Of a stretch of 64,000 nucleotides of DNA, positions 2,807 through 60,188 are shown piece after piece. Origin of the DNA: Thermoanaerobaculia bacterium. Its GTDB lineage: Bacteria; Acidobacteriota; Thermoanaerobaculia; Gp7-AA8. The notes beneath the pieces are model-generated. The model was not told where the DNA came from. It did no database searches and saw nothing but the letters and a program-made list of their open reading frames with translations. Position 1 is the first letter of the stretch. Each line of letters starts with the position of its first letter. The DNA lies in the NCBI GenBank assembly GCA_035544735.1, contig DATKCD010000013.1, forward strand, positions 3,412 to 67,411, given 5' to 3'. A program made the translations under genes and the position numbers.

Positions 2807-3257
2807 GGGTCAGTCCTCCTCGGGCCGCTCCATCGGAGCGGGCGGTGAGCTCCCGGGCGCTCGGGTCGCGCCGGGTCGGGCGATGATCGCGCGCCGGTCA
2901 GTGGTGAAGCGACCGGGTGCGATCACGCCATACGGCGGAAGACGGCCGCCGCCACGGAACGTGACGCCCTGGGCGCTTTCTCTCGAAGCAACGGACTCCG
3001 GTTCCCGGACGTGCAACATCGACCATGAGCATGAAACCCACCTCCCACCCGCGCCGTTCGGCGCGGAGACCACGAAGCTCGGGCAATGCAGCGCCACATC
3101 TCTCCCGGATCGACACGAAGAGCGTGAAAGGAAGGCGACGAAACGGGAGGTCGCTGGAGGAGCGGCAGGCGGCCCCTGCGAGTCCCGCCGGCTGCGGGAA
3201 CCAGCCACTCCCCCCCGAAGACGAATGCGAACGAATCGATGGATCTAGGATACACCC

Positions 3258-3512
3258 GTCTGGAGCGTCTGGAGCGTCTTGGGCGTCTGGAGCGTCTTGG
3301 GCGTCTTGGGCGTCTGGAGCGTCTTGGGCGTCTGGAGCGTCTTGGGCGTCTTGGATCGGTGATACGCCAGAGTCAGAATGCAGAATGCAGAATGCAGAAT
3401 GCAGAATGCAGAATGCAGAATGCAGAAAGATGCTGGCTCACCTCCGGACTTTCGCAACTCTTCAGACACTCCTTGACGCCCTGGACACTCGAGACGCCCG
3501 AGACGCCGCAGC
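3258..3512. repeat. Composite inverted tandem-repeat element A
   Basis: Direct array of the 9-bp unit GCGTCTKGR, about 11 copies (3258-3354). Then CAGAATG heptamer x7 plus CAGAAAG (3374-3429). Then about 4 reverse-complement 9-mers GACGCCNNG (3474-3512). The element ends at the stop codon of the anti-sigma gene. Confidence 0.85.
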
Positions 3513-6429: not shown

Positions 6430-6669
6430 CCGGGGCGTCTGGAGCGTCTGGAGCGTCTAGGGCGTCTTGGGCGTCTTGGGCGTCTAGGGCGTCTCGGGCG
6501 TCTTGGGCGTCTTGGGCGTCTTGGGCGTCTTGGGCGCTCGTCAATAGAACGCGGGACGTAGCAGGTAGAACGTAGAGAGCCTGACGGATCCGCAGACGAT
6601 CTGGACGCCGCAGACGCCGACGCTCCAGACGCTCCAGACGCTCGAGACGCCCTAGACGCCCTAGACGCC
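6430..6669. repeat. Inverted 9-bp tandem-repeat element B
   Basis: Forward GCGTCTNGN array of about 12 copies (6433-6536). Loop with TAGAACG x3. Reverse-complement array of about 8 copies (6596-6669). It spans exactly from the PilZ-gene stop to the murB stop, and the last unit CTAGACGCC contains the murB stop. Confidence 0.85.
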
Positions 6670-19894: not shown

Positions 19895-20445
19895 CGCCGC
19901 TTCGCGGCAAATGCAGAATGCAAAATGTAAAAGAGTGTCGCGATAGTTCGGGCGGTCAGTGCGCTCCCGAATGATCATGACCCGGAAGGCTTCTCACGGA
20001 ATCGGGGGCCGAGTCGTAGGAGTCCGCCGGCCGCAAGGCCGGCCCCTCTCCCGGTGGGAGAGGGTGCCGAGCGAAGCGAGGCGGGTGAGGGGCGCGGGCG
20101 GTGACGGAGTGACCGTACGCACGACGGACGAAGCGGAGCAACTGCGCGCGCCGCGAGCTTCGCGCGAGGCGAGCGGGCGGAGAATCCCCTCACCCGCCTG
20201 CGCCTCCCTTCGGTCGGCTCCGGCACCCTCTCCCAGAGGGAGAGGGGCGTCTCGCGCAGCCTGAGCCGAGTGCGAAAGGGACCTCATGCCACGGAGTCAG
20301 ATCGAGAAGGCGCTGCGCATGCGCGGACGTGCCGAGGCGAAGGAAAGTCATCACACTCGAGCGCGCTGACCGCCGGGAACCAGCGTGACGTCCTTTTACA
20401 TTTTGCATTTTGCATTCTGCATTCTGCATTTGCCGCGAAGCGGCG
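19895..20445. repeat. MITE-like element E
   Basis: Left end CGCCGCTTCGCGGCAAATGCAGAATGCAAAATGTAAAAG. The right end is its reverse complement with two extra heptamer units. The core has nested palindromes: CCCTCTCCCGGTGGGAGAGGG(TGCC) at 20040-20065 pairs with (GGCA)CCCTCTCCCAGAGGGAGAGGG at 20222-20250, and GCGAGGCGGGTGAGGGGCG pairs with CGCCCCTCACCCGCCTGCGC. No plausible ORF inside. Confidence 0.7.
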
Positions 20446-26715: not shown

Positions 26716-27144
26716 GAGCGTCTGGGGCGTCTGGAGCGTCTGGGGCGTCTGGAGCGTCTTGTGCGTCTAGGGCGTCTTGTGCGTCTTGGGCGTCTTGTGC
26801 GTCTCGGGCGTCTTGTGCGTCTAGGGCGTCTTGTGCGTCTTGTGCGTCTTGAGCGTCTAGGGCGTCTTGTGCGTCTTGAGCGTCTGGAGCGTCTAGGGCG
26901 TCTTGTGCGTCTTGAGCGTCTTGAGCGTCTGGAGCGTCTGGAGCGTTTTGAGCGTCTGGAGCGTCTGGACCATCTTGGGCGTCTGGCGCGGCACGGCCCG
27001 GTGCAGGTGAATCGATTCCAGACGCACGAGGAGCACGAGGCGCCCCAGACCCCCTAGACGCACAAGACGCTCTAGACGCTCTAGACGCCCTAGACGCCCT
27101 AGACGCCCTAGACGCACAAGACGCACAAGACGCTCAAGACGCCC
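26716..27144. repeat. Inverted 9-bp tandem-repeat element C (largest copy)
   Basis: About 30 direct GCGTCTNGN units (26716-26990). 60-bp spacer. About 10 reverse-complement units (27050-27144). Runs from the DUF2007 stop to the terC stop. Confidence 0.9.
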
Positions 27145-45292: not shown

Positions 45293-45738
45293 GGGCGTCT
45301 TGGGCGTCTTGGGCGTCTTGGGCGTCCTGGGCGTCTGGAGCGTCCTGGGCGTCTTGGGCGTCTTGAGCGTCTTGAGCGTCTTGAGCGTCTTGAGCGTCTT
45401 GAGCGTCTTGAGCGTCGAGTATCGATTCACGTCGAAGATCCGGACCGTCCCCTGCCGTCGGCCGCACCGGGTCGGCCCGAGAGCCCGAGGAGTGAGGAGC
45501 AGGATCGTTCTATCTTCTACGTTCTACGTTCTACGTTCTATGTTCTGCGTTCAAGAAGATCTACAGAGGCTCCAGACGCTCCAGACGCTCCAGACGCTCC
45601 AGACGCTCCAGACGCTCCAGACGCTCCAGACGCTCCAGACGCCCTAGACGCTCCAGACGCCCTAGACGCCCTAGACGCCCTAGACGCTCAAGACGCCCTA
45701 GACGCTCCAGACGCCCTGGACGCCCAAGACGCTCAAGA
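45293..45738. repeat. Inverted 9-bp tandem-repeat element D
   Basis: About 14 direct GCGTCTNGN units (45293-45416). Unique spacer. ACGTTCT-type heptamer x5-6 (45511-45556). About 19 reverse-complement units (45565-45738) that cover the dnaJ stop. Confidence 0.9.
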
Positions 45739-51372: not shown

Positions 51373-51510
51373 TCCGGGCAAATGCAAAATGCACAATGCA
51401 AAATAATGCAAAATGGACAATCCAAAAAGGAGCCGACGACCCTCGACCGTCGCCGACCGATTCTGGCTGCTTCTCTTTGGATTGTGCATCGTGCAGTTTG
51501 CATTCGGCCG
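51373..51510. repeat. Heptamer-array hairpin element F
   Basis: Left arm CCTCCGGGCAAATGCAAAATGCACAATGCAAAATAATGCAAAATGGACAATCCAAAAAG. Right arm is its imperfect reverse complement (CTTTGGATTGTGCATCGTGCAGTTTGCATTCGGCCGGAGG). 37-bp loop. Confidence 0.75.
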
Positions 51511-53886: not shown

Positions 53887-55218
53887 TCACATTCCCCTGC
53901 GGCCGCGGACGACCAGGCGCACGGGGGTGCCGACCAGCCCGAGGGCTTCGCGGAACTGGTTCTCGAGGAACCTCTTGTAGGAGAAGTGGAGCGGCTGTTC
54001 GACGTTCGAGAAGAGGGCGATGGTCGGCGGGCCGGAACGGAGCTGAGTCGCGTAGTAGAACTTCCGCCCCTTTCCGTCGACGGAGGGGGGGGAGTGCTTC
54101 GCGACGGCCGCCGCGAGGATCTGGTTGAGCTCGGAGGTCCGGAACCTCGCCCGATGGGACTCGGCGATCCGATCGATCTGGTCGAACAGCTTGTCGACGC
54201 GGCGGCCCGTTTTCGCGGAGATGAACTCGACCGGGGCGTACTGGAGGAACTTGAGCTTCGAGCGAATCGTCTCTTCGACGCGCTTCGCGGTGTCCTGCTC
54301 CGCCTCGACCAGGTCCCACTTGTTGACCAGGATGAGCGCTCCCTTGCCTTCCTCCTCGGCGTAGCCCGCGACCGTCGCGTCCTGCGCGGTGACGCCCTCG
54401 ACGGCGTCGATCATGACCAGCGCCACCTCGGAGCGGCGGACCGCCTTCAGCGCGGAGATCACGGCGAGCTTCTCCGCCCCGTCGGTCGTCTTCCCCTTGC
54501 GGCGGATCCCGGCCGTGTCGATGACGAGATAGCGCCGGCCCCCTCGCTCGATCCACTCGTCGACGGCGTCGCGCGTCGTGCCGGCGATCGAGGAGACCAC
54601 CACCCGCTCGCTCCCCGCCAGCCGGTTCAGCAGCGACGATTTACCGACGTTCGGCCGACCGATGATCGACAGCCTGACCGGGCTCGTCTCGTCCCCCGCT
54701 TCGGCCTCGTCGGGATCGTGCGGCAGCCGCTTCGCCAGCTCCTGCTCGAGCTCGTCGAGATTGATCCCGTGCTCCGCCGAGACGGCGATGAGACGCTCGA
54801 ATCCGAGCGCGTAGAACTCTCCCGCCGAATCCCGCGCGCTCCCAGTGTCGATCTTGTTGACCACTACGACGACCTTCTCCGCGTGCGGGCGCAGCTCGGT
54901 CGCGATCTCTTCGTCCTCCGGCATCGAGCCGGCGGTCCCGTCGACCACGAACACGATGACGCTCGCCGTCTCGATCGCGCGCAACGCCTGCTCCCGGATC
55001 TCACCGGCGAACGCCGACAGCGGGTTCTGCCCGTATTCCAGCCCCCCCGTATCGATCAGCTCGAAGCTCCGGCCGTCGGCGAGCGAGGAGAGGGCCGAGA
55101 TCCGGTCGCGCGTCATTCCGGGCATGTCGTGGATGAGCGCCCTCCGCCGCCCCGCGAGGCGGTTGAAGAGCGTCGACTTTCCGACGTTCGGTCTCCCGAC
55201 GATGACGACTCGATTCAT
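53887..55218 (-). CDS. der: Ribosome-biogenesis GTPase Der (EngA), tandem GTPase domains + KH-like domain
   Basis: Start refined to MNRVVIVGRPNVGKS. Second GD IGRPNVGKSS. DTAG and NKxD in both domains. Confidence 0.95.
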   Translation of the reverse strand: MNRVVIVGRPNVGKSTLFNRLAGRRRALIHDMPGMTRDRISALSSLADGRSFELIDTGGLEYGQNPLSAFAGEIREQALRAIETASVIVFVVDGTAGSMPEDEEIATELRPHAEKVVVVVNKIDTGSARDSAGEFYALGFERLIAVSAEHGINLDELEQELAKRLPHDPDEAEAGDETSPVRLSIIGRPNVGKSSLLNRLAGSERVVVSSIAGTTRDAVDEWIERGGRRYLVIDTAGIRRKGKTTDGAEKLAVISALKAVRRSEVALVMIDAVEGVTAQDATVAGYAEEEGKGALILVNKWDLVEAEQDTAKRVEETIRSKLKFLQYAPVEFISAKTGRRVDKLFDQIDRIAESHRARFRTSELNQILAAAVAKHSPPSVDGKGRKFYYATQLRSGPPTIALFSNVEQPLHFSYKRFLENQFREALGLVGTPVRLVVRGRRGM

Positions 55219-55320
55219 GACGTTCACGCCGGAGACATCATCGCATTCCGGAACGCCCCTCGACACGATGCCGTCTGCGCGCACCTCCTTCCCTGTCGCA
55301 CGCTTCGCCTCCGGACGCGA

Positions 55321-56661
55321 TCAGAGCGCGACCGCTCCCCAGTACAGCGCGATCGCGATCAGCGCGCCGGCGAGGGTGTTGAAGAAATTGAGCGCGCCGT
55401 TGGGAACGGGGACGCTCCTGTTCCGATTCCAGCTCCCCGCCACGCTCTCGAGCCACGAGGCGAGGATCGCGGCCGTGGTGACGATGAGCGTGCCCGCACC
55501 GAAGCTGACCGCGATCCGATCGTGTGCGAGGGCGACGCCGAGCGCGCCAACCGCCCCTCCCGCCAGCGCCCCCGCCAGCGTCCCCTCCAGCGAGATCGCC
55601 CCCTCGGTGCCTCGCGGAACCTGGCGGAGGCTCAGCGGAAGGAACGTCCTTCGCCCGAACAGCTGGCCGATCTCGGAGGCGGTGGTGTCGGCCGTCGCGG
55701 TGGCGAGCGCGGCAATCGCCCCGAGCCAGAGCGCTCGCAGCGACCCCGCTTCAGCTGCGATCAGGAGCGAGACGATCGCCGCCACCCCGACGTTCGACCA
55801 GGCATGCGAGAACCCCCTCCGCCCGCCCCGCTCCTGGGCGAGCCCGGCCGCCTCCTTCTTCTGCCATCCGAGTCGCGTCACCGCCGTGCCGACGACGAAG
55901 AACGCGACCAGCACCACGTAGAGCTCCCAGCCGGCGAATGCGATCAGGATCGCACCGAGCGCGAACCCTCCTGCCGCGCCGGAGAGGGTCACGCTCCGTC
56001 CGAGCCACCCTCCCAGAGCGAGCGCACCGTTCGCTCCGAGCCAGAGCAACTCCGTCCCGCCGAGACGCGGCTCCGGCTCGCGCGAGATCCGCGTCAGCGC
56101 CGCCAGCAGAAGGGCTCCGACCAGCGGCACCACGAAGTTGTCGTCGAGACGCAGATCGAGACTCTCCGCGATCGCGCAGGCGATCGCCGTCACGACCGCC
56201 AGGGAGATCCAGCCGGCCGCGTACGGAGGATCGGGCTGCACGAACGAGGCGACCTGCCACGCCGCGACGCTCCCGGCCAGAACGAACGTCAGCGAGCCGG
56301 CGACGCTCTTCGAGCGGTTCCACGGCAGTCGCGGTCCCCCGATCAGCCGCCCCGCCAGGGTCGCTCCCCCGTCGCCGAACGCCATGATCGCCCACACCGC
56401 CGCGGCGACCCCGGGATCGCCGGGGAACAGGACGATCAGGAAGAACACCGCAGCGGGATAGAGGACGATTCCGAGGTCCGTGCCGCGCGGGCTGCGCGCG
56501 ATGCGCGTGCCGAACAGGTGCGGGAGCACGAGCCAGTTGTAGAGAAACGCCGCGGCGGCCAGGGCTGCCGCCTGCCAGGGACTCAACCATCGGAGCAGCA
56601 GAGCGCAGAACCCGAACGCCACGTGCACCAGCTTCCGGAGGACCTCCCGATCGAGCGCCAT
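55321..56661 (-). CDS. Fusion of polyprenol/phytol-kinase-like (CTP-dependent kinase) domain with DUF92 (TMEM19-like) membrane domain
   Basis: Start refined to MALDREVLRKLVHV. N-terminal part has FGDGGATLAG...NRSKSVAGS (dolichol/phytol-kinase-like). C-terminal half is polytopic DUF92-like. Confidence 0.6.
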   Translation of the reverse strand: MALDREVLRKLVHVAFGFCALLLRWLSPWQAAALAAAAFLYNWLVLPHLFGTRIARSPRGTDLGIVLYPAAVFFLIVLFPGDPGVAAAVWAIMAFGDGGATLAGRLIGGPRLPWNRSKSVAGSLTFVLAGSVAAWQVASFVQPDPPYAAGWISLAVVTAIACAIAESLDLRLDDNFVVPLVGALLLAALTRISREPEPRLGGTELLWLGANGALALGGWLGRSVTLSGAAGGFALGAILIAFAGWELYVVLVAFFVVGTAVTRLGWQKKEAAGLAQERGGRRGFSHAWSNVGVAAIVSLLIAAEAGSLRALWLGAIAALATATADTTASEIGQLFGRRTFLPLSLRQVPRGTEGAISLEGTLAGALAGGAVGALGVALAHDRIAVSFGAGTLIVTTAAILASWLESVAGSWNRNRSVPVPNGALNFFNTLAGALIAIALYWGAVAL

Positions 56662-56776
56662 CCGCGCGAGTCTAGGGGTCGGGCAGACCCGGAGTCCAGA
56701 AGAGTCGGGGTTCGGGAGTCGGCAGTCTCGCGGTTCCCCGCCCGGCTCCAGACTCCAGACTCTACAATGGGCGGCG

Positions 56777-58210
56777 ATGGCCGAATCCGAGAGCCCCGCC
56801 GAGCCCCGGCCGCTGCTGTCGGTCATCGTTCCCTGCTACAACGAGCGGTCGACGGTGGCGGAGCTTCTGAGACGCGTGAGGAAGGTCCCGGTCGACAAGG
56901 AGATCATCGTCGTCGACGACCAGTCGCGCGACGGCTCGCGCGACATCGTGGCCGCCCTGGCGGCGGAGTGGCCCGAGCTGCGCCAGGAGATCCAGCCGCG
57001 AAACATGGGAAAGGGGGCCGCGCTCCGGCGCGGGATCGAGCTCGCGCGCGGCGAGATCGTCATCATTCAGGATGCGGATCTCGAGTACGACCCGGAGGAG
57101 TACCCGAAGCTGATCCAGCCGATCGTCGACGGGCACGCGGACGTCGTCTATGGTTCGCGATTCGAAGGCTACCCGCGACGCGTCATGCTCTACTGGCACA
57201 GGCTCGGCAACGTTTTTCTCACATTCCTCTCGAACGCGACGACCAACCTCGACCTGACCGACATGGAGACGTGCTACAAGGTCTTCCGCCGCGAGGTGAT
57301 CCAGTCGATCCGGCTCAACTCGAACCGCTTCGGTTTCGAGCCCGAGGTCACGGCGAAGGTCGCGAAGCGCGGGTACCGGATCTACGAGGTCCCGATCGCC
57401 TACTACGGCCGCGACTACTGGGAAGGAAAGAAGATCAACTGGAAGGACGGCTTCTCGGCGATCTGGACGATCCTGCGGTACGGCCTGTTCGAAGATCCCG
57501 CGAGCGAGCCGGCCGGCTATCTCACGCTGCGCCGCAAGTCGACCCTCCGGAATTATCACGAATGGATCTGGGACCGGATCCGGCCGCACGTGGGGCAGCG
57601 CGTGCTGGAGGTCGGAGCGGGGAGCGGGAGTCTGACGCGCCTGCTCTACGGGCGCGATCTGGTGGTCGCGACCGAGAAGGAGACGCCGTATCTGGACCGT
57701 CTGACCAACGCATTCCGGCGGCGGCCGGGGATCGAAGTCGAGGCGCTCGACCTCGATGCGCCGGGAGACCTCTCGCGCTTCATCGAGCGTCGCTTCGACA
57801 CGATCCTGCTGGTCAACGTCCTCGAGCACCTCGGCGACGACGCCGGCGCGCTCCGGCGCGCCCATTCGATCCTCGAGCCGGGGGGAACGGTGATCGTTTA
57901 CGTGCCGGGAGACAGCCGGCTGTTCGGACCTCTCGATCGCGGCGTGGGGCACCACCGGCGCTACGACCCCGAGCAGCTCCGGCAGCTTTTGTCGGAGGCG
58001 GGCTTCTCGACGATCGAGCTCGGATGGCAGAACCGGGCGGGCCGCATCGGATGGAGGGTCAACTCCGGGCTGCTGCGGCGGCGCGAGCTGCCGTCGACCC
58101 AGTCGAAGATGTTCGATCGTCTGGTGCCGCTGCTGCGGCGGCTGGAGGGGGAGCGGCCGCGCAGGGGGCTCAGCCTCGTCGCGGTGGGTCGCAAGGGAGA
58201 ATCGCGATGA
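56777..58210 (+). CDS. Family-2 glycosyltransferase (polyprenyl-phosphate mannosyl/glucosyl-transferase, Dpm1-like) fused to a class-I SAM methyltransferase domain
   Basis: LLSVIVPCYNE...VVDDQSRDGS...IQDADLEYDP (GT-A DXD). Then LEVGAGSGSLT...LLVNVLEHL (MTase motifs I and post-I). Confidence 0.85.
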   Translation: MAESESPAEPRPLLSVIVPCYNERSTVAELLRRVRKVPVDKEIIVVDDQSRDGSRDIVAALAAEWPELRQEIQPRNMGKGAALRRGIELARGEIVIIQDADLEYDPEEYPKLIQPIVDGHADVVYGSRFEGYPRRVMLYWHRLGNVFLTFLSNATTNLDLTDMETCYKVFRREVIQSIRLNSNRFGFEPEVTAKVAKRGYRIYEVPIAYYGRDYWEGKKINWKDGFSAIWTILRYGLFEDPASEPAGYLTLRRKSTLRNYHEWIWDRIRPHVGQRVLEVGAGSGSLTRLLYGRDLVVATEKETPYLDRLTNAFRRRPGIEVEALDLDAPGDLSRFIERRFDTILLVNVLEHLGDDAGALRRAHSILEPGGTVIVYVPGDSRLFGPLDRGVGHHRRYDPEQLRQLLSEAGFSTIELGWQNRAGRIGWRVNSGLLRRRELPSTQSKMFDRLVPLLRRLEGERPRRGLSLVAVGRKGESR

Positions 58211-59226
58211 GCGAGCGCGCGGCGATCCTGCTCGCGGGGGGGGCCGGCACGCGCCTCTGGCCTCTGAGCACCGACGAGCGGCCCAAGCAGTTCCTCCGGA
58301 TCTTCGAAGGACGCTCGCTCCTGCAGATCGCCTTCTCCCGCATGCGGAACCTCCTTCCGGCCGACCGGATCTTCGTCGCGGCCCACGAGCGCCATCGCGA
58401 AGCGATCTTCGCCGAGCTGCCCGAGCTCCCCCCCGACAACGTCCTGCTCGAGCCCGAGCGGCGGAACACCGCGCCCGCGATCGCCGTCTCCTGCTCGCAG
58501 GTCGCGCGCACCCTCGCCGGCGATCCGGTCATCGGGATCTTCCCCTCCGATCACTTCGTCGCGGACGAGGACGCATTCGTCCGCACCGTCGACCGCGCCT
58601 TCCGCTTCGCCGCGACCGAGCCGTTTCTCGTCACGATCGGAATCGATCCCGATCATCCCAACACCGGCTTCGGATATCTCGAGCTCGGAGAGACGATGGG
58701 GGACGAAGTCATCCGGCTGCTCCGCTTCGTCGAGAAGCCGACGCGGGAGCGCGCCGAGGAGTTCGTCCGGAGCGGGCGGTTCGTCTGGAACGGAGGGATG
58801 TTCGTCTGGCGCCGGAGCACCTTCGAGAACGCGCTGGAGGCGACCGCTCCGGAGATCGCGGCGATCGCCCGGAAGCTCGCCGGCGCTTCGGCAGCCGAGC
58901 GGAAGACCCTCTACGCGCAGATGCCTTCGATCTCGATCGACTTCGCCGTGATGGAGAAGGCGCCGAACGTCGCGACCGTCCGGGGATCGTTCGGCTGGTC
59001 CGACGTCGGGTCGTGGAAGGCCGTCGCGAAGATCGTCGGGCAGGGACTGGAGGAGGGAGTGATCCGCGAAGAGTCGCCCGGCTCGCTGGTGCACGCCCGA
59101 GGCGACCGCCCCGTCATCCTCATCGGCGTGCCCAACATCGCCGTCGTCGACGTCCCCGAAGGACTCCTCGTCATCGACCTCGACCGATCCGAGCACCTCG
59201 CCTCGGTCCTCAAGAAGCATGAGTAA
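58207..59226 (+). CDS. manC: Mannose-1-phosphate guanylyltransferase (GDP-mannose pyrophosphorylase)
   Basis: ATG at 58207 overlaps the upstream stop (ATGA). LLAGGAGTRLWPLS nucleotidyl-transferase motif. The listed 1746-aa ORF is an artefact. Confidence 0.85.
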   Translation: MSERAAILLAGGAGTRLWPLSTDERPKQFLRIFEGRSLLQIAFSRMRNLLPADRIFVAAHERHREAIFAELPELPPDNVLLEPERRNTAPAIAVSCSQVARTLAGDPVIGIFPSDHFVADEDAFVRTVDRAFRFAATEPFLVTIGIDPDHPNTGFGYLELGETMGDEVIRLLRFVEKPTRERAEEFVRSGRFVWNGGMFVWRRSTFENALEATAPEIAAIARKLAGASAAERKTLYAQMPSISIDFAVMEKAPNVATVRGSFGWSDVGSWKAVAKIVGQGLEEGVIREESPGSLVHARGDRPVILIGVPNIAVVDVPEGLLVIDLDRSEHLASVLKKHE

Positions 59227-59347
59227 GGCATTGATGATTGATGATTGATGATTGATGATTGACGGCTCGATCATCGAGCATCAATCATAGATCATCAATC
59301 AAAAATGCCTTTCAATCATCAATCATAGATCATAGATCATCAATGCC
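59227..59347. repeat. TGATTGA-heptamer inverted-repeat element G
   Basis: GGCATTGA(TGATTGA)x4...central palindrome GCTCGATCATCGAGC...TCAATCA/TAGATCA units...TCATCAATGCC. Terminal inverted repeats GGCATTGATGA/TCATCAATGCC. The right repeat contains the ATG (59343-59345) of the next gene. Confidence 0.85.
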
Positions 59348-60188
59348 TTCTGGCGTGTTCGACATTCACCTTCACGTGCAGCCCTGGGAGATGCTGCGGG
59401 ACGAAGTGCGGCCGCTCATCGACGACGAGTCGCACCGCGGCGCCGCGGAGATTCTCGCCTCGGCTCCGCGCCTCCTCGACTGGATGGATAAGGAAGGGAT
59501 CGCGCGCGCCTGCTGCATCAACTACGTCTCCCCCGACGTGATGGGATTCCCCGCCGCGGTGAACGACTGGATCGCGACCTTCACGCGCGCCCATCGCGAC
59601 CGCCTCCTCCCCGTCGGCTCGGTCCATCCGAAGACCACTCCCGACCTCCGCTCCGAGATCCTCCGCCTGCTCGACCTCGGCATGCGGATGATCAAGATCC
59701 ATCCGCCGCATCAGCTCTTCGCCGCGAATGCCTACCGCTCCGGCCTGCCGGGCCTCGCCGCCGTCTACGCCGAATGCGAGACGCGCGGAGTCCCGGTGAT
59801 GTTCCATACCGGAACGTCGATCTTTCCGGGAGCGCGGAACGTCTACGCCGACCCGATGCCGATCGACGACGTCGCCGTCGATTTTCCGCGCCTCACGATC
59901 ATCCTGGCGCATGCCGGCAGACCTCTCTACGGCGACACCGCCTTCTTCCTCGTGCGGAGGCATCGCAACGTGTTCCTCGATCTGTCCGGCATCCCTCCGA
60001 AAGCGATCCCGCGATACGTCCCGCGCCTGGCCCACATTTCGGAGCGGGTCCTCTGGGGAACCGACTGGCCCTCGCCCGGCGTGGTCTCGCCCCGCGCGAA
60101 CGTCGAGCAGTTCCGCGCCCTCGGTCTCGGAGAAGAAGTCGAGCGCAAGATCCTCGGCGAAAACGCCGCCCTGTTGTTCCCGACGTAG
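59343..60188 (+). CDS. Amidohydrolase-2-family TIM-barrel metal-dependent hydrolase
   Basis: Start refined to MPSGVFDIHLHVQ (H-x-H metal motif at the N-terminus). HTG and later His/Asp (GTDWP). Confidence 0.7.
   Translation: MPSGVFDIHLHVQPWEMLRDEVRPLIDDESHRGAAEILASAPRLLDWMDKEGIARACCINYVSPDVMGFPAAVNDWIATFTRAHRDRLLPVGSVHPKTTPDLRSEILRLLDLGMRMIKIHPPHQLFAANAYRSGLPGLAAVYAECETRGVPVMFHTGTSIFPGARNVYADPMPIDDVAVDFPRLTIILAHAGRPLYGDTAFFLVRRHRNVFLDLSGIPPKAIPRYVPRLAHISERVLWGTDWPSPGVVSPRANVEQFRALGLGEEVERKILGENAALLFPT

Follow-up and report, generated by a model that had tools for sequence, protein, structure and literature searches.

Inverted pairs of heptameric simple sequence repeats (SSRs) have been described in Xanthomonas campestris and X. 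axonopodis, where GGGAATC arrays form convergent, stem-loop-capable pairs in 70-75 cases per genome (Rehm et al. 2015, PMC4692102). In Haemophilus influenzae, about ten heptamer units in the 5' untranslated region (5'-UTR) of hmw1A make up one arm of a long RNA hairpin that is processed by RNase III (Rapun-Araiz et al. 2025, PMC12721329). Direct TAACTGA repeats lie close to start codons in Beggiatoaceae, cyanobacteria and Bacteroidetes, with 169 direct sets against one indirect set in a Beggiatoaceae genome (MacGregor 2015, PMC4679880), and short tandemly repeated repetitive (STRR) sequences are known from cyanobacteria, with Nostoc heptamers overlapping start codons (bioRxiv 10.1101/2022.06.06.494920). 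Here we describe a hairpin element of 125 bases (59225-59349), built of inverted runs of the 7-base unit TGATTGA, in a 64,000-nucleotide stretch of contig DATKCD010000013.1 from a Thermoanaerobaculia bacterium; we call the whole stretch the window. The element lies at the junction between a manC-like NTP-transferase gene and an amidohydrolase gene.

We consider it probable that this element is a palindromic heptamer SSR, an inverted (TGATTGA)n/(TCAATCA)n pair whose right arm was duplicated once, and that it arose in one Thermoanaerobaculia lineage within the very short spacer of the coupled manC-amidohydrolase junction. It is real, but most likely a fairly ordinary example of a known bacterial repeat type and not a conserved regulatory switch. 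Our analysis establishes the anatomy of the element, its absence at the orthologous junctions, the abundance in the lineage of similar pairs with other units, and a predicted RNA hairpin.

The element has a single left arm, AAGGCA(TTGATGA)5, followed by two right arms in tandem, which are made of TCAATCA-type units and each end in ATGCCTT; all positions given for its parts refer to the forward strand. The left arm (59225-59262) begins with the clamp AAGGCA and continues as a perfect TTGATGA/ATTGATG array of 4.7 units, with TGA in all three frames. The first right arm, R1 (59274-59311), reads TCGAGCA TCAATCA TAGATCA TCAATCA AAAATGCCTT, and the second, R2 (59312-59349), which holds the real start codon, reads TCAATCA TCAATCA TAGATCA TAGATCA TCAATGCCTT. 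The left arm and R2, 38 nt each, are 89% complementary. R1 is a direct 38-nt copy of R2 (84% identical) and is 84-85% complementary to the left arm, from which it is separated by a turn (59263-59273) made of CGGC and the first variant unit, the arms being only 4 nt apart. Both the manC TAA (59224-59226) and the amidohydrolase ATG (59343-59345) fall within the terminal clamps.

An earlier reading of this DNA, which we refer to as the original prediction, had described a 121-bp element that begins at the base after the manC TAA and carries the start codon in a terminal inverted repeat. Terminal inverted repeats are indeed present (AAGGCATTGATGA... paired with ...TCATCAATGCCTT): GGCATTGATGA (59227-59237) and TCATCAATGCC (59337-59347) are exact reverse complements of each other, and the ATG at 59343 lies inside the latter, just as had been claimed. 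The boundaries needed revision, however. The sequence described is there, but the inverted repeat is longer, since its left arm takes in the last two bases of the TAA and its right arm extends 4 nt beyond the ATG. The palindrome GCTCGATCATCGAGC (59265-59279), a 7+1+7 structure made of the two variant heptamers TCGATCA and TCGAGCA, had been placed at the centre of the element; it is centred on 59272, at the junction of the left arm and R1, whereas the centre of the 121-bp element is 59287. In the minimum free energy (MFE) structure it forms a 6-bp local hairpin.

The element is far beyond chance. The two-unit pattern TGATTGATGATTGA, with up to two mismatches allowed, has nine matches in the window, all within 59228-59332 (59228-59262 on the plus strand and 59274-59332 on the minus strand), and shuffled sequences give 0.11. 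Tandem Repeats Finder (TRF) reports a perfect heptamer array at 59230-59262 (period 7, 4.7 copies, 100% matches) and degenerate heptamer arrays at 59267-59301 and 59312-59344. The G+C content is 36% in the element and 67% in the window. As in other heptameric SSRs, at least three 7-nt units stand head to tail in an intergenic position, here between the manC TAA (59226) and the ATG (59343); as in the Xanthomonas pairs, arrays of the same heptamer converge nearby on opposite strands. TGATTGA has no G run and is not a G-rich unit capable of forming a G-quadruplex. We place the element with the heptameric SSRs and inverted heptamer pairs; it lacks the marks of a G-quadruplex repeat, an RNA thermometer, a terminator or an Rfam family, and also the target-site duplication and, in the sequences searched, the dispersed copies of a miniature inverted-repeat transposable element (MITE). 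It is a new instance in a known kind of repeat, for which a regulatory interpretation is partly supported.

Among described systems, the inverted GGGAATC pairs of Xanthomonas (PMC4692102) appear closest in architecture. In both cases tandem heptamer arrays occupy intergenic sites, have genes within tens of bases and vary in length among relatives. The Xanthomonas unit, however, is G-rich and forms G-quadruplexes, whereas TGATTGA has no G-tract and falls outside the GGGNATC family. The window element also differs in its one left and two right arms, its GC clamp, its wholly filled spacer and the start codon inside it, and in the Thermoanaerobaculia lineage the unit differs at each locus. In demonstrated function the nearest counterpart, by analogy, would be the hmw1A hairpin (PMC12721329), in which a heptamer arm likewise forms part of a long hairpin (predicted, in our case) upstream of a start codon, and whose structure affects expression post-transcriptionally. 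Its partner arm, in contrast, is a non-repeat G-rich segment, its site is a promoter or 5'-UTR and not an operon junction, and its phase variation has been demonstrated.

The TAACTGA and Nostoc arrays share other features with the element: they are intergenic, end a few nucleotides from a start codon or over it, carry stops in three frames in one orientation, and have no Shine-Dalgarno sequence between array and start. They differ in being nearly all direct and in usually turning the stop-containing orientation toward the start, whereas the window element turns the stop-free orientation toward the start and has an inverted partner. Repetitive extragenic palindromes and bacterial interspersed mosaic elements (REP/BIME), like MITEs, are also small intergenic palindromes that can lie inside operons and form mRNA hairpins. 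REP/BIME elements are defined as conserved imperfect palindromes of 20-40 nt in high copy number, with a RAYT transposase. Unlike theirs, the arms of this element are simple tandem repeats and not unique sequence, and in the 64-kb window, where there is a single copy, we found no multi-copy consensus, target-site duplication or associated transposase.

Comparison of orthologous junctions points to a derived state of the locus. The order DUF92, GT2-methyltransferase, manC, amidohydrolase is kept in three relatives (L001, L003 and L123), and the manC-amidohydrolase pair is kept in L004, which is on a short contig. In L004, the closest relative (78% amino acid identity), the two genes are separated by the 11-nt spacer TAAGGTCCTCCCGTATGCC (TAA GGTCCTCCCGT ATGCC), and in L123 (73%) stop and start overlap as TGATG. 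L001 (75%) has an 86-nt GC-rich palindrome directly after the stop codon. In L003 (76%) a 299-nt palindrome runs from the stop codon to the ATG; it is bounded by arrays of (GATTGCA)n and (TGCAATC)n, the last unit of which contains the ATG, and its predicted folding energy is -197 kcal/mol (z = -11.7). When the amidohydrolase gene follows a different gene, the junction is a 4-nt overlap (L124 and L125) or a 95-nt GC-rich spacer with a palindrome unrelated to the TGATTGA element (L126). The TGATTGA element was found at none of the orthologous junctions examined (L001, L003, L004, L123 and L126). Because these junctions differ from the window and from one another, with a TGATG overlap, an 11-nt spacer or unrelated palindromes, the element is a derived feature, inserted or expanded within a spacer formerly 0-11 nt long. 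The L004 junction and the window have TAAGG and ATGCC in common, so part of the window's terminal inverted repeat is ancestral flank.

Similar pairs with other units are abundant in the lineage. The window holds about seven array elements in its 64 kb. One set is a nonamer family in which GGGCGTCTT arrays face AAGACGCCC arrays, with arms of up to 270 nt, at 3257-3507, 6433-6669, 26716-27144 and 45295-45738. A heptamer family, AATGCA[GA], is present at 3374-3427, at 19909 and 20431, where it flanks a GC-rich palindrome, and at 51380-51510. On a rough gene map based on G+C content at third codon positions (GC3), all these other elements are flush with neighbouring codons whatever the orientation of the genes: the 26716 array begins 1 nt past a stop, the element at 6433-6669 spans stop to stop between convergent genes, and the one at 45295-45738 spans stop to start on the minus strand. 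The stop-to-start extent of the TGATTGA element, which the original prediction had singled out, is therefore true but nothing special, because any insertion that fills a spacer of 0-11 nt must reach both codons and the other arrays of the window are equally flush.

The same tendency is seen in relatives. In about 95 kb from six of them, TRF found that inverted array pairs are built from over ten distinct heptamer units and from one nonamer unit; they include AGGGGCT/CCCCTAG, GTCGGGA/TCCCGAC, TCTCCGT/CGGAGAA, GAATGCA/TTCTGCA, AGTTCCC/ACTGGGA, TTCGACC/AAGGTCG, AAAGGCA/CTTTTGC and GTGCTGG/CAGCACT. There are several array elements in each 10-20-kb stretch, several of the pairs adjoin start codons, and the unit changes from locus to locus.

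The heptamer itself is widespread. Among the GTDB matches listed, (TGATTGA)3 occurs at more than 118 loci, against 0.3 expected by chance in the 596-Gb collection, and the hosts comprise Bacteroidota, Planctomycetota, Verrucomicrobiota, several Acidobacteriota, Desulfobacterota, Chloroflexota, cyanobacteria, gammaproteobacteria and one archaeon, with cultured isolates included. In the same set of listed matches, 206 arrays reach a length of 21 nt or more, for 95 of them (46%) an inverted partner lies no more than 250 nt away, and the geometry of the window, 5'-(TGATTGA)n-loop-(TCAATCA)n-3', outnumbers the reverse by 40 to 5. Solo arrays lying within 30 nt upstream of a candidate start, as assigned by a crude open reading frame (ORF) rule, have the TCAATCA orientation in 35 cases and the opposite one in 12. 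One left arm followed by several tandem right arms, each with its own clamp, recurs (for example at L025, L036 and L104), other hairpins run from a stop to a start (L046, L069, L130 and L140; Acidobacteriaceae and Gemmatales are among the hosts of such cases), and at L138, L140 and L130 the arrays are flush with starts.

These arrays do not look like copies of one sequence. Their clamps, loops and lengths vary among genomes, the 26-nt core of the window element has no match in the JGI metagenomes, and the 16 metagenome matches to the clamp-plus-array pattern are all unrelated elements in other organisms, with unrelated interiors, which argues against a single dispersed family. The possibility that TGATTGA is a specially recurrent unit was ruled out, as viral contigs contain three control heptamers with its base composition just as often (16, 23 and 11 contigs, against 22 for TGATTGA). 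We suggest that TGATTGA arrays reflect a general bacterial tendency to grow heptamer repeats and neither a special motif nor a dispersed family. The search for (TGATTGA)n/(TCAATCA)n pairs that had been proposed for this locus thus found them in many phyla, but only one copy in the 64-kb window. Of the idea of a third, distinct repeat family with the same dual-arm logic as two others, the presence of other inverted tandem-array elements in the window is upheld, but a distinct family is not supported: no second copy of the core was found in the window or the JGI metagenomes, and the heptamer is found in many unrelated phyla with different clamps and loops. A literature search with the exact repeat string returned unrelated papers only.

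How might such an element arise? The arrays may have grown by replication slippage, and the inverted arm would have arisen, or stayed complementary, through inverted duplication or intrastrand template switching. R1 and R2 would then stem from a later tandem duplication of 38 nt, ATGCCTT included. Array growth would have halted on meeting coding sequence, which would explain why the arms end in stop and start codons. R1 carries a decoy ATG (59305-59307, AUGCCUU) that opens a 7-codon ORF with a stop at 59326-59328, out of frame with the amidohydrolase gene; both are probably relics of the right-arm duplication.

The 201-nt RNA around the element is predicted to fold at -72.5 kcal/mol (z = -3.9), and none of 200 shuffles folds as well. 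In the equilibrium prediction, as in the MFE structure, the left arm is paired to R2, and the probabilities of being unpaired are 0.04, 0.03 and 0.00 for the A, U and G of the start codon. The AUG and the 12 nt upstream of it are paired in both the MFE structure and the ensemble, the AUG itself with 59229-59231, only 3-5 nt past the UAA. The claim that the start codon would be base-paired in the mRNA agrees with these folds (probability of being unpaired at most 0.04). The predicted cost of opening 59328-59349 is as low as 7.8 kcal/mol, since R1 offers the left arm another partner. To imitate a ribosome that has halted on the UAA of manC, 59210-59239 was forced to be single-stranded; the AUG then loses its long-range pairing, and only a weak local hairpin is left. 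The predicted partner of the AUG lies inside the footprint of the ribosome terminating on manC, which is the structural hallmark of translational coupling. An effect on coupling or occlusion is a plausible consequence of the hairpin modelled here.

We propose the following course of events on the polycistronic mRNA. Pairing between the left arm and R2 would hide the AUG, and free ribosomes would initiate poorly, exposure costing about 7.8 kcal/mol. A ribosome that terminates at the manC UAA would cover the base of the left arm, releasing the AUG, which the remaining stem would keep beside the stop codon. The terminating ribosome would thus both unmask the AUG and be placed to reinitiate, and the ancestral termination-reinitiation coupling would be largely preserved. 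RNase III, for which a long near-perfect stem is a classical substrate, may cleave the 38-bp stem as an alternative or additional route of unmasking. The element would then be tolerated and not selected as a switch. In the long-range pairing of the MS2 coat and replicase cistrons, the downstream start is paired to a segment that is opened by the ribosome on the upstream cistron. The predicted pairing in the window has the same form, in that the upstream-cistron ribosome must open the segment to which the downstream start is paired. Unlike pairings of the MS2 type, however, which are conserved and experimentally required, that of the window would be a recent by-product of repeat insertion.

Several points weigh against this account and should be kept in mind. 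The origin by slippage and template switching is taken from established mechanisms. The strong 40:5 bias in orientation, like the GC clamps found at the bases of hairpins, may reflect selection acting on structure or leader sequence and not mutational drift alone. Our search for copies covered the 64-kb window, the JGI metagenomes and the GTDB matches listed, and dispersed copies may exist elsewhere. With the nearest database relative at 78% amino acid identity, conservation within the genus or a recent gain cannot be dated from these sequences. Folding of successive prefixes predicts that the left arm pairs first with R1 during synthesis, so the AUG may never be hidden co-transcriptionally. 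Finally, every structural statement made here is a thermodynamic prediction.

The alternative that survives best, although we regard it as unlikely, is that a MITE or similar mobile palindrome was inserted between manC and the amidohydrolase gene, with the heptamer arrays serving as transposase-binding terminal repeats. The terminal inverted repeats and the low G+C content (36% against 67%) would fit such an origin, as would the presence of different palindromes at the junction in different relatives. In L001 inverted heptamer arrays bound a whole PF05635 gene cassette between DUF92 and der, and a defined terminal repeat would be expected to produce the constant TGATTGA...TCAATCA geometry. Neither candidate boundary shows a target-site duplication, however (the flanks are GAGT / CTGG or GAGTAA / TTCTGG). 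A mobile element is also hard to reconcile with one copy in 64 kb and a core unmatched in the JGI metagenomes, with the unrelated clamps, loops and lengths of arrays of the same heptamer elsewhere, and with the use of a different heptamer at each locus of the lineage. No transposase was identified, the source genome being covered by the 64-kb window only.

A doubtful alternative is that the gene-proximal (UCAAUCA)n arm is the functional part, as an unstructured, G-poor, Shine-Dalgarno-independent leader or a protein site (of the S1, Csp or CsrA type) that promotes initiation, with the left arm incidental or antagonistic. The excess of TCAATCA among the solo arrays near candidate starts in the listed GTDB matches (35 against 12) points in this direction, but it rests on the crude ORF rule for starts. 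The hairpin geometry, at 40 to 5, always sets TCAATCA beside starts, arrays at L138, L140 and L130 are flush with them, and GGAG or GAGG is found at only 38 of 87 starts in the lineage; MacGregor (2015, PMC4679880) proposed translational regulation for the start-proximal TAACTGA repeats. On the other hand, viral contigs contain the control heptamers as often as TGATTGA (16, 23 and 11 against 22), so the unit is not special, other loci of the lineage have quite different heptamers beside their starts, and the fold predicted for the window has the arm base-paired.

A broader and equally speculative model, to which we give little credence at present, treats palindromic heptamer arrays as self-folding intergenic inserts, similar to intervening sequences (IVS), that invade coupled junctions because the stem re-juxtaposes stop and start. 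The AUG would be unmasked by the terminating ribosome, by a reinitiation relay through UGAUG-linked mini-ORFs of the (UGAUUGA)n arm, or by RNase III; the (UCAAUCA)n arm would be a Shine-Dalgarno-independent leader, and the 40:5 bias would reflect that function. The left arm does encode chained 4-codon mini-ORFs (AUG AUU GAU GAU UGA) joined by UGAUG overlaps at 59234-59262, and contains four AUGs on the forward strand, at 59234, 59241, 59248 and 59255.

We find it quite improbable that the hairpin is a dedicated post-transcriptional device, selected to occlude the amidohydrolase AUG and responding to temperature or another signal; the original prediction had likened the pairing to a translational-coupling or occlusion device or a thermosensor. 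The predicted pairing of the AUG and the 12 nt upstream, in MFE structure and ensemble, is what an occlusion device would need, and the two alternative partners of the left arm, R1 or R2, are switch-like. Against this, the element is at none of the orthologous junctions examined. The proposed thermosensor fares no better. In folding from 20 to 80 °C, the probability that the AUG is unpaired is predicted to be 0.00-0.04 at 37, 50, 60 and 70 °C and at most 0.11 at 80 °C; there is no melting transition between 37 and 80 °C, and we rule out an RNA thermometer on these predictions. No Rfam family matches at its gathering threshold, the highest scores, 15-25 bits, coming from generic miRNA-hairpin models whose thresholds are 44-180. 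Every array element of the window is flush with its flanking codons regardless of gene orientation, which also speaks against such a device.

The least probable of the readings, and one compatible with ours and not exclusive of it, is an RNase III processing site or REP-like mRNA-stability hairpin that separates the fates of the manC and amidohydrolase parts of the operon transcript, or an internal promoter: the cleavage of the hmw1A heptamer-SSR hairpin by RNase III, with its effect on expression (PMC12721329), and the 38-bp near-perfect stem favour processing, and TTGACG-18 nt-AATCAT at 59259-59288, inside the element, favours a promoter, but no terminator-like tail follows the hairpin and the sigma-70-like match is weak (9 of 12 positions; one match against 0.2 expected). 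No terminator-like site was found in 58600-59900, and the sequence after R2, GCCUUCUGGCGUG, has no U-tract. A transcript begun at the promoter-like match would not include the left arm, so that the AUG would be free.

If the interpretation as a tolerated heptamer SSR is correct, the junction is a clean natural case of a mutation-driven repeat colonising a coupled operon junction without killing the downstream gene, in which the hairpin would fold aside and the stop and start codons stay adjacent. In the Thermoanaerobaculia loci sampled, inverted heptamer or nonamer pairs, each with a unit of its own, fill entire spacers, and the literature searched gave no description of this pattern for Thermoanaerobaculia. 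Such elements explain AT-rich islands, spurious ORF extensions and repeat-embedded start codons in the annotation of high-G+C metagenome-assembled genomes (MAGs). A new regulatory principle would follow only from an experimental demonstration of coupling or leader function. The most interesting by-products of the analysis are the under-described abundance of arrays in Thermoanaerobaculia and the 40:5 bias in geometry across phyla.

The flanking genes are well defined. The manC-like gene (58207-59226, forward strand; Pfam NTP_transferase, E = 7e-40; stop TAA at 59224-59226) has a C-terminus that can be aligned with those of relatives ([IV][VL]KK...stop), and at its other end the ATG shares an ATGA overlap with the stop of the GT2/methyltransferase gene upstream. 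The amidohydrolase gene (Amidohydro_2; 59343-60188, forward strand) encodes 281 amino acids and matches positions 2-288 of the Pfam profile from residue 7 (E = 6e-35). These genes make up a tightly coupled operon. A missing Shine-Dalgarno sequence was considered as evidence of obligate coupling and dropped; its lack is uninformative because GGAG or GAGG stands upstream of only 38 of the 87 gene starts in the lineage (44%).

The start of the amidohydrolase gene deserves comment, since a start further downstream would take the AUG out of consideration. An identical protein of 281 amino acids with the same start (P0001) is recorded at NCBI from a Thermoanaerobaculia MAG; the search returned thousands of homologues, the closest besides it at 78% identity. 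In 120 listed proteins (P0001 and 119 homologues), the conserved FD motif is preceded by 2 residues in 10 cases, 3 in 79, 4 in 8, 5 in 5 and at least 6 in the rest, and never by 1. The window's protein has 5, the mode being 3. A start at the in-frame GTG (59355) would leave a single residue, fewer than in any of the 120, and this GTG is paired in the MFE structure as well; the start is the ATG at 59343, as had been assumed. The upstream in-frame TTG at 59259 was rejected as well, as it would add a repeat-encoded N-terminus that is present in no homologue.

Some further observations concern the repeats themselves. Three members of the nonamer family contain an inner heptamer array or fragment: CAGAATG x7.7 at 3374-3427, CGTTCTA x6.7 at 45506-45552, and TAGAACG fragments near 6545-6570. 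The elements at 19909-20431 and 51380-51510 end in (AAATGCA)n / (TGCATTT)n heptamer arrays, and the former encloses about 460 bp with the GC-rich inner palindromes CCCTCTCCC...GGGAGAGGG; their architecture is like that of the 299-nt junction element of L003. At 5584-6084 of L001, inverted (AGGGGCT)n / (CCCCTAG)n arrays flank a 122-aa gene of PF05635 (an Avd-like 23S rRNA intervening-sequence protein). This cassette is an insertion between two genes, DUF92 and der, that stand 24-73 nt apart in L123 and L003, and its layout resembles a 23S rRNA intervening sequence placed in an mRNA operon. A general link between heptamer arrays and PF05635 was not upheld, as tblastn over all fetched loci gave only one other copy, which is not beside an array.

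Among the other genomes, the Blastocatellia MAG nzgw74 alone has at least eight TGATTGA loci, with GGGGAA/TTCCCC clamps and clusters of up to six left and six right arms. In L140, a metagenome contig with 69% G+C (JGI Ga0134121_10100288, about 1919-2015), a TGATTGA/TCAATCA hairpin lies between two divergent genes, and each arm is flush with the ATG of its own gene (...TCATCAATATGCCC; on the other strand ...TCATCAATGCCACCGATG); the stop-free orientation adjoins the starts both ways. In the window, the 1746-aa ORF at 53986-59226 on the plus strand in the mechanical ORF list is an artefact of stop-poor, high-G+C sequence; the real genes beneath it are minus-strand genes at 53887-56835, followed by GT2-methyltransferase at 56777-58210 and manC at 58207-59226.

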